Source: Candidatus Heimdallarchaeota archaeon (GTDB taxonomy: Archaea; Asgardarchaeota; Heimdallarchaeia; Heimdallarchaeales; Kariarchaeaceae). From it: a DNA stretch of 32,000 nucleotides. How positions within the stretch are numbered: the stretch's first letter is position 1; each line of letters begins with the position of its first letter. Of this stretch, positions 23 through 15,512 are shown piece after piece. The notes beneath the pieces are model-generated. The model was not told the DNA's origin. It worked only from the letters and a program-made list of their open reading frames with translations, and searched no databases. A program made the translations under genes and the position numbers. The stretch spans positions 420,001 to 452,000 of the forward strand of contig JASBSB010000001.1 in NCBI GenBank assembly GCA_030149205.1, given 5' to 3'.

Positions 23-412
23 AATTTAATTTTTTTTTATTAAGCTTATAAACTTACATTGTTAAAAAAAAATTGCTCTACCCGATCATTCGTAATTGAA
101 TTAATAATGTTTACATTTTTATATTATTATTCAGCAATTACAAAGGAAAATTAATTTAGCTCTTGATTTTATCCTCTTTTCCTCTGTTTATAATACCCTT
201 CAATTAATGGAGGGTTAACTAGAATTGTAAAACTCATACTAAGGTATAGGTCAAATCTATATCTAAAACAATTTATGTTGCGTTCATCGAAACTCAAAAA
301 TTATATTAATCAACCTTTAAAATATAAATTTTAGTTTAAATTGAAAGAAGAGACTACATCAATGAAGGGCAACAACATCGTTAATATCCAGACATAAATT
401 ATTATCTGCATT

Positions 413-10224: not shown

Positions 10225-10563
10225 TTGATACATATGTGGCATACACTTGATGGATATTGGTACATGATGAATTATGCGTGGATGTGGATTTCAATGTATA
10301 TCGTTGTAATCCTTACATTAGCGTTTATTAGTTCAAGAAGAGATGAGAACACGTTTTTATGGGTCTTACTTTTTATATTCTTCCCTATGATGTCTATTTT
10401 CGTTTATTTGATATATATAGTCATTCAGCAACCAGAAGAATCTAAAATAACAACTACTCCGGAGACAAACCAAACAAACAATACTTCAAAGTACTGTTCT
10501 GAATGTGGGGCCATGAATCCAAGAATTGCGAAATTCTGTACGGAATGTGGAACTACCTTCTAG
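10225..10563 (+). CDS. Small membrane protein with two TM helices and a C-terminal zinc ribbon
   Basis: Two hydrophobic segments, a Thr/Asn-rich linker, then CSECG...FCTECG. ATG 10234 is an alternative start. Confidence 0.8.
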   Translation: MIHMWHTLDGYWYMMNYAWMWISMYIVVILTLAFISSRRDENTFLWVLLFIFFPMMSIFVYLIYIVIQQPEESKITTTPETNQTNNTSKYCSECGAMNPRIAKFCTECGTTF

Positions 10564-10625: not shown

Positions 10626-12386
10626 ATGTTTTTTTACCCTGAACTAAGTTTAACTTACAGAATGAAAACTAGCGAAATAACAGGAAAGGGTTTAAATTAT
10701 GAGAATATACCCCCGGTTTTAACTGAGGAAGAATACTCACCAAGGGCATTATTTTTAAATCAAAATGAAGAATTTAAAGTTCAAACTGATAAAGCCCATG
10801 TATTTTTAGTTTATAACAAATCGGACAGTTCTACTCCTTGGCAAATTTTGAAAAATTCGACATCCTTTCTACTCCGGGCTGAACAGGATGGAGAGGCTCT
10901 TTTCATCTTTCCTGAGACATTAACTCTAATTTTGGACCTTCATCTTAATGGAACAACTAAATCCATTAGAACAACTTTTGATGCAACATTAATTGAAGTC
11001 ATTGCTACGCTGTTTAAATCATCAACTCCCACCACAATAATCAAAAATTTAACAGCCAAAATTAAGATGATTCTTGAAGGATATTTTATTAGCGAAACTC
11101 AAAAATTTGAGGAAATAACTCTGGATAGTCAATTTTCAATATCAAATGAAATGCTGGATAAGATTGAGATGAAACTTAGTCTCTATGGTTTAAAACTACT
11201 CGCGATTGAGGAAGCACCTGTAGAAGAACAAGAATCTATACTCCTTGTTGATTTTTATGGTGAAACCCCTGAAGAGCGAGAAGAGATCAAGCCTATTCAA
11301 TTCATCCCTGAAGAAAAAATGGTGAACCATGAGCCTGAACTAACACAAGAAATAGAAAATGAGAAAAAAACACCGACTGAGAAACTTCATACGGTTCCTA
11401 AGGAAATATCAAAAGAAGATTCAACTAAAGTGGAAGAAAGTTATGAATTACCCTCTGCTCCAAAATCAGAATCAATGGAAGCAGTTATGTTATCTGATGG
11501 AAAGAATGAAGATCTGCATCTAGAAGTACCTACCGCTGGTGGAGAACAATCACTATTCGAAGAAGAAATTGTAGATCAACCACCTCCTCCAGTTCCAGAG
11601 CCTTCTCAAGTAAAGAAAAAAACACAGGCACCTAAACCCAAAGTATCAAGAAGAATGAGAGGGGGTACAGTAAAGGAGACTGAAGAAATCCCCTCAATTG
11701 AGGGTCTTGATTCTTCAGAAACATTGAATGAAGAACTTTTCCCAGAGAGATTGATGGAAGCAGGTTCACCGCTGACGTCGATAAAAAACATTTCATGTAC
11801 TTGGTATAATCAAATGATTGTAAATAAGACCTACCCTATTTTGCTCAAGATCTCAGACAGGGAACAGGACAAAAAAAGAAAGATGTCATCATTTATATCA
11901 GGGGAACAAATCACTCAGGAGCATCTCTCAGTTAAATTTGATCCTGATTTAGATATACAAATCAGGGCTGAGTTTCCAGGTTGTCTTGTGACACCTCTTG
12001 ATCGCACATTCTCTCCTAAGGAGAAAGACGTAATGCTTCGCTTCTATGTTACCCCTTTAGTTAAGGGAAAAGTTGATGCATCAATCACATTTATTCAAAA
12101 CGGTAAAACCGTCGATTCAATACCTTTGAATGGCAAAGTTGGAGATCATCGTGTAGCAAAAATTATTTCATCTGTAGGTGTTTTAGTAAGTGTACTTCCC
12201 TCCTTTTTTGCATTCTTGTTTGGGGTAACTGTTCAAGAATTTCTCAGCAAAAGGGTTGGTTCAGACTTTTCAGTTATTTGGAACATCGGAACAATCTTTG
12301 GTGGGTTATTTTTGATCTTGCTAGGATTGATCCTGTATAGGATGGAGTATGAAAAGTCAAAGAGGAAGACGTATTTTGAAAATTAA
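10626..12386 (+). CDS. Membrane-anchored protein: N-terminal alpha/beta domain (possibly SPFH-like), acidic Pro-rich linker, beta-sandwich, C-terminal TM hairpin
   Basis: Long ORF with a Glu/Pro-rich region at about aa 195-375 and two C-terminal hydrophobic helices. Domain names are inferred. Confidence 0.8.
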   Translation: MFFYPELSLTYRMKTSEITGKGLNYENIPPVLTEEEYSPRALFLNQNEEFKVQTDKAHVFLVYNKSDSSTPWQILKNSTSFLLRAEQDGEALFIFPETLTLILDLHLNGTTKSIRTTFDATLIEVIATLFKSSTPTTIIKNLTAKIKMILEGYFISETQKFEEITLDSQFSISNEMLDKIEMKLSLYGLKLLAIEEAPVEEQESILLVDFYGETPEEREEIKPIQFIPEEKMVNHEPELTQEIENEKKTPTEKLHTVPKEISKEDSTKVEESYELPSAPKSESMEAVMLSDGKNEDLHLEVPTAGGEQSLFEEEIVDQPPPPVPEPSQVKKKTQAPKPKVSRRMRGGTVKETEEIPSIEGLDSSETLNEELFPERLMEAGSPLTSIKNISCTWYNQMIVNKTYPILLKISDREQDKKRKMSSFISGEQITQEHLSVKFDPDLDIQIRAEFPGCLVTPLDRTFSPKEKDVMLRFYVTPLVKGKVDASITFIQNGKTVDSIPLNGKVGDHRVAKIISSVGVLVSVLPSFFAFLFGVTVQEFLSKRVGSDFSVIWNIGTIFGGLFLILLGLILYRMEYEKSKRKTYFEN

Positions 12387-12437: not shown

Positions 12438-13166
12438 TTGAAATTAGTGAAGCAAAACAAACTTAGGAACATAAATACATTATTTTTTGACTTAGATGGT
12501 ACACTTTTAGATCTTTCAGATGAGAATTTTGAGAAAGTATATGCCTATGAAGCTGCAATGATTTTTAAAGATATTATTGACCCAAAAATTTTCGTTAAGT
12601 TACTTATTGAAAGCACCGTTGAAATGATGAAAAGTCGAGGAGAGAAGTTACTGATTGATGTGTTCTATGAATTTTTTTGTCCAAAGGTTGGATTAAAAGA
12701 AGATGAGGTTCAGAATCGATTCTTGAGGTTTTACGAAACCTCATTTGATAAATTAAAGTTGGTGTCAAAAAGAATTAACGGAGTTCCTGACTTAATAAGG
12801 AAACTCAATGACAGAGGTTATAAGCTGGTTTTAGCAACACAACCTTTCTTTTATGAGTTAGCAACCATTAAAAGAATAAGATGGGCAGGATTGGAACCTG
12901 ATCAGTTCTTATATTTTACCCATATTGAAAATAGTAGTGTGGCAAAACCGAACCCCCTGTATTTTGAACAACTTGCAAACATCACCAAATCAAAACCTGA
13001 AGAAATTTTAATGATAGGGAATGACTACCTATATGACTTATCAGCAAAGAAATTAGGCATTTCTACATGGATGACCCCTCAAAATCAATCAAATCTTGAG
13101 TACAAAGATAAAATGAGCCCAGATTTTGAACTTCCACTATTAGAACTCTTAGATTTCCTACCTTAG
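12438..13166 (+). CDS. HAD-superfamily hydrolase (phosphatase)
   Basis: Motif I FDLDGTL, motif II LATQP, motif III AKP, motif IV IGND...D. Confidence 0.92.
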   Translation: MKLVKQNKLRNINTLFFDLDGTLLDLSDENFEKVYAYEAAMIFKDIIDPKIFVKLLIESTVEMMKSRGEKLLIDVFYEFFCPKVGLKEDEVQNRFLRFYETSFDKLKLVSKRINGVPDLIRKLNDRGYKLVLATQPFFYELATIKRIRWAGLEPDQFLYFTHIENSSVAKPNPLYFEQLANITKSKPEEILMIGNDYLYDLSAKKLGISTWMTPQNQSNLEYKDKMSPDFELPLLELLDFLP

Positions 13167-13738
13167 ATGATTTCACTCTCAAACTCTTCTTCTAATTCTG
13201 AACTGGTAGATAGAAGCTGACCTAGATTTTCAAATATTTCAATTAAGTTATCATCATTTTTTATTGAATATTCATAGAGAAAAATTTCATTCGACCAAGT
13301 CTTTGAGATTTTCTCCATCAATGACTTCACATCTGATATACTAAAGTCAGCTTCATTAGTTAAATCAATCTTGTTAACAAGAAAAACCAAAATAGGAGAC
13401 CCACAATGCTTTTCGACCTGTGGGAGCCAGTCATTAACTGCGTTTAATGATACAAAATTGGTTAAATCGATCAAAAAAATTACAACAGAAGTTCCTCTTA
13501 AATACATTTCAATCAAAGATTTGTAAGAAAGTTGTGATCCAAGTTCCCAAATGCTAAACAGAAAACTATTACCTGCGTATTGCATTGGAAAACTTTCGAT
13601 TTGCACTGGAGTGGTGGGGATATATTTCTCAGAAAATTTCTGATAGATGAGTTTGTTAATTAAACTAGTTTTCCCGGTTCTGGAACTACCTAATAACAAA
13701 ATCTTGAATATATATTGAGTGTCCACCATTCGAACCAT
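13163..13738 (-). CDS. Ras-superfamily (Rab-like) small GTPase with a degenerate G3 motif
   Basis: FKILLLGSSRTGKTS (G1), YIPT (G2), WELGSQ (G3, normally WDxAGQ), NKID (G4), YSIK (G5). No C-terminal CAAX. Its stop overlaps the HAD gene's stop. Confidence 0.9.
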   Translation of the reverse strand: MVRMVDTQYIFKILLLGSSRTGKTSLINKLIYQKFSEKYIPTTPVQIESFPMQYAGNSFLFSIWELGSQLSYKSLIEMYLRGTSVVIFLIDLTNFVSLNAVNDWLPQVEKHCGSPILVFLVNKIDLTNEADFSISDVKSLMEKISKTWSNEIFLYEYSIKNDDNLIEIFENLGQLLSTSSELEEEFESEII

Positions 13739-13802
13739 TCATTATATTCTTTAAAATAATTTATATTATAATACACAAAATAATTTAGTTCTTATGAAAT
13801 TA

Positions 13803-15512
13803 TCATTTTGCATAGTTTAAGATTGATTTTTCAACTTTAAACTCTTCTGGAAGTTTTTCTAAATTCAAAATCCTCATGACTGAGGAATCAAGCGCTGTAT
13901 GGTTACGAGCACTTAAAAGCTGGCCTGCCCTCATCATCAATGTCCTTCTTTTTACGGTTTCGTCTCCTTTTTTAGGATAATCCATTACCCTGGTTCGGGT
14001 TGATCCTATCACTGCAACTAACCTATTTTCATCTCCTGAGAAGGTAAGAATAACCTTTTCATTATCATTGATTGAAAATACAATTTCTTCGGGTTTAAAT
14101 TGAACTTCACTTGAACTAAGCTCACTTAACACAGATTCTAATTGGACATCAAGACCATCTAAAATTGAGATCAGTTTTGTAGGGTTAATATTGTCAGTAA
14201 TTTCATAAATAGAAGTTTGTCCACTGGTATAATCTGATTCCAAGGCACCATCTAACACATATTCACTTTCTCTAATCACGTCAAAGGTTTCAAATAAAGG
14301 AATATCAGATACTGCCTCAACTGATAATGAGTCAGCAAGAGAATTAGGCAACATATTTCGTTTTAATTTAGAAACCTGTACTTTTGTAGTAGCTCTGGTG
14401 TTTCCAGTTGGAGTGCTGTCCTCTTTTTTGAACATCCCTAATAACTTTGCGATGAACCCCTTTTTCTGAGGAGCTGGGGGCTTAATGCTGGATTGTGTTT
14501 CATATGTATTCTCCTTTTGCTCAACCTCAATAGTAAACTCCTTTAACCAACCCTCAGCATCACTATCAACGAGTTCTAGAATACTTGTCATTTGGGTCGC
14601 ATTTACCCCATCAACCTTAGTTGTTAAAATCATTGAGGGTTTAGAGCTAACATAGGGATTCCTAACTAGAATTAAATGAGAGTTATTTTCATCAAGTAAG
14701 TTCCCAGATAAGAATTGAAGTTTATAGTTTGAATCAAGTTTGGAAAGGTGAGAGTGAAGCGATTCAAGAGAACTATTACTAGGCTGTTTGTCTATATTTG
14801 AGAAACTGGAAAAAACACTTTTCCATTTTCCAGACAGGATCGCTTTTGTATCAAGATAGTTAGGGATTATAGCGTCCTTTTTCTCTTCAATCTGGTTTTC
14901 CTTGGTATATGAAATAAATTTTCTCCGACTAATTTCAACCAGATCTGCTACACTATTCACCTTGACAGATTTAGGAGAATCTTCATATTCCAAACGTAAA
15001 TCCGTCCTTCTAATTGCAGCAAACAGAACCGCTAATTCCCAAAAACCGAAGTCTGAAGATTCTAAAAATTCTCTGGTATAATACAAAAACGGAGCTATAA
15101 AATTATAATGAATTCTACCATATCTGATATCCATCGGGAGTCCACGACTTGCTAAAAAAAGATCATTTTTTCGAATTTTTGAACCAAGATAATACCCTAG
15201 AGCCATTGTTTCCATGACTTTCTTGGAACTCTCATTTCTGGTCTCTAGGCCTATCTTGAAGAGTTCGAGCACACAGCTTCTTCTTTCCTCATCACTTGCA
15301 CCAATTAATTCTGAAGCAGTAACTATGAAATCTGCAAGAAATAATGCCCTTTGGGCACTTTCATCACTTTTTGATAACCCATGTTTTTCAGCAAATTCAA
15401 TTAGCTCAGGAGACATGGATTCATACCTTTTCAGCCTAGTATCTAAGTCGAATTCTGAATTAACATTCTCTCTAAGTTCACCTATCATTTGATAATTAGG
15501 AATCAAATCCAT
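13803..15512 (-). CDS. 569-aa protein with an internal amphipathic membrane-targeting-like helix and a C-terminal roadblock/LC7-like domain
   Basis: The ORF is clear. KKGFIAKLLGMFKK lies at about 14424-14465, and a roadblock-like helix/strand pattern at about 13998-14300. Domain calls are by pattern only. Confidence 0.7.
   Translation of the reverse strand: MDLIPNYQMIGELRENVNSEFDLDTRLKRYESMSPELIEFAEKHGLSKSDESAQRALFLADFIVTASELIGASDEERRSCVLELFKIGLETRNESSKKVMETMALGYYLGSKIRKNDLFLASRGLPMDIRYGRIHYNFIAPFLYYTREFLESSDFGFWELAVLFAAIRRTDLRLEYEDSPKSVKVNSVADLVEISRRKFISYTKENQIEEKKDAIIPNYLDTKAILSGKWKSVFSSFSNIDKQPSNSSLESLHSHLSKLDSNYKLQFLSGNLLDENNSHLILVRNPYVSSKPSMILTTKVDGVNATQMTSILELVDSDAEGWLKEFTIEVEQKENTYETQSSIKPPAPQKKGFIAKLLGMFKKEDSTPTGNTRATTKVQVSKLKRNMLPNSLADSLSVEAVSDIPLFETFDVIRESEYVLDGALESDYTSGQTSIYEITDNINPTKLISILDGLDVQLESVLSELSSSEVQFKPEEIVFSINDNEKVILTFSGDENRLVAVIGSTRTRVMDYPKKGDETVKRRTLMMRAGQLLSARNHTALDSSVMRILNLEKLPEEFKVEKSILNYAK

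Follow-up and report, generated by a model that had tools for sequence, protein, structure and literature searches.

Where the gene for a putative regulator lies beside that of a small GTPase, do the two proteins form a pair, and what kind of protein is the regulator? Both questions are raised by a 32,000 nt window from the genome of a Candidatus Heimdallarchaeota archaeon (contig JASBSB010000001.1, positions 420,001 to 452,000), in which genes for a 569-amino-acid (aa) protein, P0001, and a Ras-family GTPase, P0002, are co-oriented on the minus strand with 64 nt between them. Asgard archaea have many small GTPases, and likewise many longin and roadblock proteins. A preliminary description of this DNA, made from the letters of the sequence, interpreted the two genes as an MglA/MglB-like module, i.e. 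a large roadblock protein bearing a MinD-like membrane-targeting motif together with its GTPase. Open reading frames (ORFs) and translations agree with the two genes and the spacing then described (coordinates are those of the window):

13803..15512 (-), founder gene of the 569-aa family (P0001), stop codon included; from the ORF list and its translation
13739..13802 (-), AT-rich spacer of 64 nt in which TATA-like runs precede the start of the GTPase gene; from the sequence
13163..13738 (-), gene for the Ras-family small GTPase of 191 aa (P0002); from the ORF list and Pfam/NCBIfam

The reading favoured here, to which as a whole we would give an even chance of being right, is that P0001 belongs to a new family of the Heimdall group and would act as a membrane-held platform of two longin-type domains for small GTPases, with the neighbouring GTPase not being its dedicated partner.

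According to the predicted models, P0001 is a soluble protein of three domains, a helical domain being followed by two of longin type. The whole protein was modelled by AlphaFold2 on an 18-sequence alignment (predicted local distance difference test, pLDDT, 82.9; predicted template modelling score, pTM, 0.82), and the C-terminal 185 residues were modelled separately, again by AlphaFold2, on 38 sequences (pLDDT 89.2, pTM 0.84). The parts distinguished are as follows, with LD1 and LD2 denoting the first and second longin-like domains:

14883..15512 (-), all-helical domain at the N-terminus, residues 1-210; helices modelled over 7-205, with pLDDT for the most part 80-96
14535..14849 (-), LD1, residues 222-326; order strand-strand-helix-strand-strand-strand-helix, modelled over 223-323
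14367..14534 (-), disordered linker, residues 327-382; pLDDT <50 throughout
14424..14465 (-), amphipathic motif KKGFIAKLLGMFKK, residues 350-363; from the consensus and a per-member listing
14310..14345 (-), post-linker helix, residues 390-401; from the models
13854..14261 (-), LD2, residues 418-553; from the domain model

The N-terminal domain is the best-conserved part of the protein, with R29, Y30, D61, S67, D74, R77 and G124 each present in at least 35 of 38 members, and its fold has no recognised match, the best structural matches being unrelated helical bundles at Z ≤5.5. Its identification as a TBC-type Rab GTPase-activating protein (GAP), suggested by D74-x-x-R77 and a TBC match of Z 4.2, was rejected, as a Z of this size is noise for helical bundles and other TBC motifs were not seen. 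The remainder of what had been described as an unknown N-terminal extension of ~340 aa takes shape in the model as LD1, so that this stretch resolves into a conserved helical domain and an additional longin-like domain. In a structural search with the whole model, LD1 matches the CPLANE subunit 7q3d_C (Z 6.1, 112 residues aligned, root-mean-square deviation, rmsd, 3.6), the Lokiarchaeal longin 8yqg_B (Z 5.3), TRAPP 3cue_A (Z 5.1) and Mon1-Ccz1 9rs7_A (Z 5.0). Since the alignments to LD1 reach approximately residue 404 (222..404; 215..405), the modelled helix at residues 390-401, on the far side of the linker, may complete this domain.

LD2 and the residues immediately before it harbour near-invariant charged positions (D411, R414, E415, E476 and R522, in at least 35 of 38 members). 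AlphaFold2 places a helix at 406-414, strands at 418-427 and 432-437, helices at 444-465 and strands at 472-480, 486-493 and 497-505, thereby reproducing the order of helix, two strands, long helix and three strands already noted from the sequence; two further helices, 522-535 and 541-548, follow the last strand and had gone unmentioned. In the numbering of the separate model, the elements of LD2 are strands 34-43 and 48-53, helix 60-82, strands 92-98, 101-109 and 113-120, and helices 138-151 and 157-164. This is the strand-strand-helix-strand-strand-strand-helix-helix arrangement of the longin fold, and the same order is found in LD1, in both cases in predicted models. In an exhaustive structural comparison of the LD2 model, longin or roadblock structures account for ~46 of the best 50 matches. 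The longins include AP-3 9c5c_M (Z 7.7, 103 aligned, rmsd 2.8), VAMP7 (7.6), AP-2 mu (7.4), synbindin (7.2), CPLANE 7q3d_C (6.8), TRAPP (6.8) and Mon1-Ccz1 (6.2-6.4), and the roadblocks MP1-p14 (6.1), Asgard roadblocks (5.5) and MglB (5.4), the roadblocks as a group spanning Z 6.1-5.0 across ~92-101 residues. Longins score above roadblocks (Z 7.7-6.2 versus 6.1-5.0), with the gap being ~1.6 Z on a predicted model. All alignments begin at the first strand of LD2; those to longins include both C-terminal helices (model residues 35-169), whereas those to roadblocks omit the N-terminal roadblock helix (the first 15-27 residues of the chain), and for this reason the longin description is favoured under the topological criteria that PMC10933270 sets out. 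The model favours a place for LD2 within the roadblock/longin superfold and a better fit to longins, by a small margin and at middling Z. Consequently, the C-terminal roadblock domain of the preliminary description is upheld at the level of the superfold, whilst longins suit it better than roadblocks.

Searches by other tools agree, though weakly. Foldseek with the domain model assigned probabilities of 0.94-0.97 to the Sec22b longin and 0.85-0.90 to LC7, with no match for either the whole model or the domain model at E ≤0.001; bacteriophytochrome PAS-GAF structures, which head its results for the domain model, were rejected as poor superpositions (rmsd ~14). In the ESM Atlas, LD2 reached Fuz_longin, Intu_longin, HPS1, Robl_LC7 and Rag C-terminal clusters at template modelling (TM) scores, taken by the query, of 0.39-0.46, and a shape search with the whole model gave TM ≤0.28. 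Topoisomerase fragments returned by Atlas feature searches (0.78-0.85) were discarded as below the useful range. With regard to internal duplication, hhalign of LD1 against LD2 gave a probability of 0.3%, indicating no relation.

The linker is the only long stretch of low confidence in the model (pLDDT <50 over 327-382), and its length varies from 24 to 292 residues among relatives. Despite this, it contains a single alignable block, the amphipathic motif, for which the family consensus is KKGFFxKLxSxFxKK. The motif is kept in 32 of 38 members by a strict pattern and in ~36 by inspection, so that the proposal of a MinD-like motif within a flexible linker is borne out and extended to the family. 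Of 32 members, 28 have a basic net charge in the stretch following it, where a lysine-rich or basic tract is usual, and 16 have an acidic one in the stretch preceding it. Within the whole model the motif is undocked on either longin-type domain (pLDDT 28-43). A helical-wheel analysis, as had been recommended, finds it amphipathic, with the best 11-mer of KKGFIAKLLGMFKK displaying a hydrophobic moment of 0.55, compared to 0.40-0.45 for MinD anchors; values for the relatives range from 0.36 to 0.72 and were rated equal to or higher than those of the anchors. Sub-threshold matches to Pfam FtsA_C, the region containing the FtsA membrane helix, occur in two of 18 members. One relative's KGFFKRLFS is identical to the Escherichia coli MinD anchor KGFLKRLFG at 7 of 9 positions, and GFFAKIKSIFM of another relative to the Bacillus subtilis anchor GMMAKIKSFFG at 7 of 11 (anchor sequences as quoted in bioRxiv 10.64898/2026.10.05.756812 and PMC13537761). 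Genome-wide, the motif occurs at chance frequency (two strict matches, against 0-2 in shuffles), so that a single occurrence proves nothing and the case for it rests on conservation. Judged by its sequence, it is a conserved MinD-like amphipathic element.

With regard to the family, searches of Pfam and NCBIfam with P0001 came back empty even at E = 1, and sequence and profile searches of the PDB with three queries found nothing better than E 0.08. Robl_LC7 is absent among the Pfam matches of the 18 family members tested, and Intu_longin_1 reached only E 0.18, in one of these 18. The named homologues are all 'hypothetical protein' entries, including one from the Asgard family Candidatus Kariarchaeaceae, and no published description of the family was found in the literature. 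Homologues of 557-814 aa align with P0001 from end to end, members being just 20-37% identical to it. When 18 full-length homologues were combined into a profile, it identified only 88 representatives among 1.84 billion proteins, and the architecture is essentially common to all of them. Amongst 301 genomes sampled across the phylum, the family occurs in 9 of 10, 29 of 29, 3 of 3, 18 of 21 and 2 of 2 genomes from five families that belong to a single Asgard class. In a sixth family of this class none of the 11 genomes carries it, and the other 23 families of the phylum contribute only two carriers. Most genomes yield a single match, which is mostly one full-length gene. P0001 is hence the founder of an unnamed family that is restricted to Heimdall-group Asgard archaea, being nearly universal in five families of one class and rare elsewhere.

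Two side observations concern this distribution. The two carriers outside the class (G063:C9:37423-39126 and G070:C512:371-1504), one of which is a strong, full-length match (E 6e-177), may represent misbinned contigs or lateral gene transfer. Some relatives additionally possess a distant paralogous family of 655-747 aa (P0069, P0078-P0080, P0083, P0087, P0089 and P0090; e.g. G004:C193, G006:C34 and G022:C55), which resembles the P0001 family in its N-terminal helical domain and in portions of the remainder, and has neither the disordered linker nor the amphipathic motif. With the query used, the window's genome yielded no paralogue of this kind.

The neighbour of P0001, described beforehand as a Rab-like GTPase, is of the Ras family, matching Pfam Ras at 9.2e-25 (87.5 bits, cut-off 21.6) and TIGR00231 at 7e-20 (71.4 bits, cut-off 42.5). 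It displays the P-loop GSSRTGKT, NKID, and SIK in place of SAK. An alignment with likely orthologues places ELGSQ at switch II, where the canonical sequence is DxxGQ; the switch-II glycine is replaced by serine, with a glycine one position earlier. Three relatives of the same genus have DIGSQ, and two matches from other genera of the same family have DTGGQ or DIGGQ. By its sequence P0002 may be an atypical or slow switch. The window's genome contains at least 20 small-GTPase loci, and the closest paralogue of P0002 among them (1e-17) is far weaker than its best matches, which lie in four genomes from two genera of the window's own family (E 1e-29 to 1e-32).

The adjacency itself is genuine rather than an assembly artefact, because short contigs from two other metagenome studies (13660-13855; 13630-13902) bridge the spacer junction with zero mismatches; the junction is present elsewhere, in near-identical strains. 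The source genome is of 3.3 Mb, 93.5% complete and 33% G+C, with the window lying within a 995-kb contig. AT-rich regions with TATA-like runs are found upstream of both genes and each gene probably has a promoter of its own, although such runs are weak evidence in a genome of only 33% G+C.

Conservation of the pair was assessed at 22 loci with flanks of at least 1.5 kb where the contig allows and at 20 loci with 4-kb flanks, spanning 33 genomes besides that of the window and five taxonomic families (tblastn and phmmer, E 1e-3). At none of the 33 other loci does a Ras-like ORF lie beside the family gene, over the 1.5-4 kb of flank that could be surveyed at either side. In genomes of the same genus nuoH comes after the family gene, and the likely orthologues of P0002 in same-genus and same-family genomes reside on contigs other than that of the family gene, with the haloacid dehalogenase (HAD) hydrolase kept at their 3′ side and a Na+/H+ antiporter or other genes at their 5′ side. 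Because the family gene and the GTPase orthologues each have other neighbours at this point, the synteny break is placed in the 64-nt spacer. P0001 and P0002 are thus probably not a dedicated pair, and their adjacency is peculiar to this species, having probably arisen by rearrangement in this lineage. The claim of an MglA/MglB-like module, for which non-conservation of the pair had been named in advance as contrary evidence, is not sustained. More generally, Asgard GTPases are not usually in operons with roadblock or longin genes (Tran et al., PMC10933270). A complex prediction for the whole of P0001 with the GTPase returned a score of 0.00, which is no answer and bears neither way.

Around the two genes, a CorA Mg2+ transporter, an alpha/beta hydrolase and a methyltransferase lie upstream of P0001 on the same strand, and the HAD hydrolase converges on the 3′ end of P0002. 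A 586-aa protein (window 10626-12386 (+)) and this hydrolase (12438-13166 (+)) lie beside the GTPase, the 586-aa protein having no Pfam match, an acidic Pro-rich middle and C-terminal membrane helices. The two are likewise found, at L027:2139-3545, next to the GTPase's best match in another genus, and since they stay with it there, the conserved block is GTPase-HAD-586aa and not GTPase-large protein. A small membrane protein in the window (10225-10563 (+)) ends in a CxxC...CxxC zinc ribbon, and in two relatives, each of another taxonomic family, the gene immediately downstream of the family gene encodes a similar zinc-ribbon membrane protein of ~250 aa (L005:450-1196(-) and L023:467-1234(-)). 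In three genera of one taxonomic family the family gene has a C69 peptidase gene upstream and, downstream, a gene for a 266-aa tetratricopeptide repeat (TPR) protein, all co-directional (TPR gene at L017:525-1322(-), and at the same place in L018-L022, L045-L048 and L050). This TPR protein exceeds the Pfam cut-offs for Foie-gras_1 (34.2 bits; a TRAPPC11 domain) and SNAP (31.8 bits) and may be a lineage-specific partner; a homologue was not found in the window's genome. No operon partner conserved across the whole family was found, the C69-family-TPR arrangement being limited to that one taxonomic family.

Taken together, a new membrane-tethered longin architecture that serves as a GTPase platform in trans is plausible, as opposed to an operon of MglA/MglB type. 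The motif and the basic tract would hold P0001 reversibly on the cytoplasmic face of the membrane, and the two longin-type domains would act in trans as a platform for small GTPases of the genome, one or several, in a manner likened to eukaryotic Mon1-Ccz1, CPLANE, the TRAPP core and GATOR1/folliculin. Several points weigh against this. The evidence for the fold is wholly from predicted models, in which Z of 5-7.7 is middling by the tool's own calibration, and the Pfam, NCBIfam and PDB profile searches tied P0001 to no longin or roadblock family at the level of sequence. The motif is internal, whilst the MinD anchor is C-terminal, and its membrane binding is a prediction from sequence. Longin domains also have roles unrelated to GTPases, and the best-conserved residues fall in the helical domain, which has no assigned function. 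A more specific form of the proposal, that P0001 is the Heimdall-group counterpart of the eukaryotic longin-platform regulators, with an intramolecular two-longin platform, a Ccz1-like loop helix and a polybasic tract, and acts on Asgard GTPases of Rab-, Arf- or Rag-like type as a GAP or exchange factor, is considered unlikely at present.

Three other explanations merit consideration, each of which is less supported than a membrane-held platform acting in trans. Were the two genes a cognate module of MglA/MglB type, P0001 would be a membrane-recruiting GAP, guanine nucleotide exchange factor (GEF) or scaffold specific for P0002. The co-orientation and 64-nt spacing of the genes are as such a module would have them, and the junction is seen in two further samples; moreover, LD2 belongs to the appropriate superfold (MglB Z 5.4, MP1-p14 Z 6.1), and the unusual ELGSQ switch II of P0002 might require a special regulator. 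Against this stand the missing adjacency at all 33 other loci, same-genus genomes included, and the unequal distribution of the proteins, with the P0001 family near-universal in its class and close relatives of P0002 seen in only four genomes of two genera of the window's own family, as well as the AT-rich spacer with its TATA-like runs and the lack of any Robl_LC7 sequence match. A cognate module is, therefore, thought very improbable. A different possibility is that the longin domains have nothing to do with GTPases and form a scaffold or adaptor that binds helices, as do SNARE longins, the N-domains of AP sigma and mu subunits, and LC7, the motif then being a protein ligand, e.g. an autoinhibitory helix that docks in the groove of a longin domain, or an attachment point for a partner. 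The highest structural matches, namely AP-complex and VAMP7/Sec22 longins, are indeed binders of peptides or helices rather than of GTPases, roadblock and LC7 dimers bind partner helices (PMC10933270), and the C69-family-TPR gene order in three genera hints at a protein partner. The model nevertheless leaves the motif undocked on both domains, at pLDDT 28-43, the TPR neighbour is missing from the window's genome, and the composition of the motif (glycine, an aromatic/aliphatic face, flanking lysines and a polybasic tract thereafter) is that of tested MinD anchors. This explanation is accordingly regarded as doubtful.

Less expected still would be that the N-terminal helical domain is the functional core, acting as a novel kind of enzyme or binding module, with the longin-type domains and linker serving to localise or regulate it. 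The near-universal polar residues do cluster at positions 29-124 (R29, Y30, D61, S67, D74, R77, G124), in a domain that matches no known fold. Near-invariant charged residues are, however, likewise present in LD2 (D411, R414, E415, E476, R522), the helical domain yields neither a catalytic-motif match nor a fold lead, and it could equally be a structural partner of the longins, the pTM of 0.82 suggesting a single compact body.

With regard to its wider significance, the family is notable for being near-universal in the families that carry it, for the presence of two longin-type domains in one chain and for an apparent built-in, reversible membrane anchor. The Heimdall-group class is the one most often placed beside eukaryotes, and P0001 offers a concrete, cloneable candidate for asking if membrane-localised GTPase regulation predates them. 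If the regulator reading is true, prokaryotes would have an example of the membrane-localised GTPase switching by which eukaryotic organelles are given their identity. The parallel to the Ccz1 loop helix supplies a ready experimental template. Gene adjacency in a single Asgard genome, by contrast, is a poor guide to GTPase-regulator pairs.

Amongst known systems, the roadblock proteins, i.e. MglB (6hjm/3t1r), MP1-p14, LAMTOR and the Asgard roadblocks (7yh1, 9jue), share a superfold with LD2, and both roadblock and longin dimers are GTPase platforms (PMC10933270). Roadblock proteins are nonetheless homodimer-forming proteins of ~120-160 aa, whereas P0001 is a multidomain protein of 569 aa that has no conserved GTPase neighbour, and LD2, unlike roadblocks, possesses the two C-terminal helices typical of longins. 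MinD and FtsA anchors resemble the motif in being short, with the pattern Gly-aromatic/aliphatic-x-Lys/Arg-aliphatic and flanking lysines. The MinD anchor, however, forms the extreme C-terminus of a ParA/MinD ATPase, whilst the P0001 motif occupies an interdomain linker (residues 350-363 of 569) in a protein with no ATPase domain. As the motif is internal and in a protein unrelated to MinD, the resemblance would most simply be convergence of sequence. The longin GAP subunits (folliculin, SMCR8, NPRL2) have the longin fold, and LD2 matches GATOR1 8fw5_B at Z 5.7, Lst4 4zy8_C at 6.0 and FLCN-FNIP2 6ulg_N at 5.4; longins of FLCN/SMCR8 type are reported in Heimdallarchaeia, and GAP longins harbour a 'GP' motif between their first two strands (PMC12290439). 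No such GP pair shows up in the consensus of either LD1 or LD2 across the family. Near-invariant arginines are present (R414, R522), with none assigned as an arginine finger, and P0001 is without the DENN or other C-terminal module of the GAP longins. The Lokiarchaeal Roadblock-Longin (PDB 8yqg) is an Asgard multidomain protein of the same superfold, 8yqg_B matching LD1 at Z 5.3 and LD2 at Z 5.8; such fused Asgard longin/roadblock proteins differ from P0001 in domain order and partners, P0001 being class-restricted and equipped with the amphipathic linker motif.

The closest comparison is with the tri-longin Rab GEF (RabGEF) subunits Mon1, Ccz1, Fuzzy, Inturned, HPS1 and HPS4, which like P0001 carry several longin-type domains per chain. 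CPLANE 7q3d_C is the best match of LD1 (Z 6.1) and also matches LD2 (Z 6.8), with Mon1-Ccz1 matching LD2 at Z 6.2-6.4. The tri-longin subunits differ in possessing three longin domains and no N-terminal helical domain, as opposed to two plus a helical domain in P0001, and in forming paralogous heterodimers, no such partner being known for P0001, for which most genomes yield a single match. Furthermore, there is no significant sequence similarity between the two, and no alignment spanned LD1 and LD2 together, such that the mutual arrangement of the domains may differ. In Ccz1, an amphipathic helix within a ~100-residue disordered loop of the second longin domain was shown by experiment to detect defects in lipid packing, and autophagy depends on it (bioRxiv 10.1101/2022.08.14.503906); this membrane-sensing helix of a longin-domain loop has its parallel in the P0001 motif, which lies in the linker after LD1. 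Thus, whilst not a member of the tri-longin family, P0001 would, by analogy, work most like its subunits, and like Ccz1 above all.

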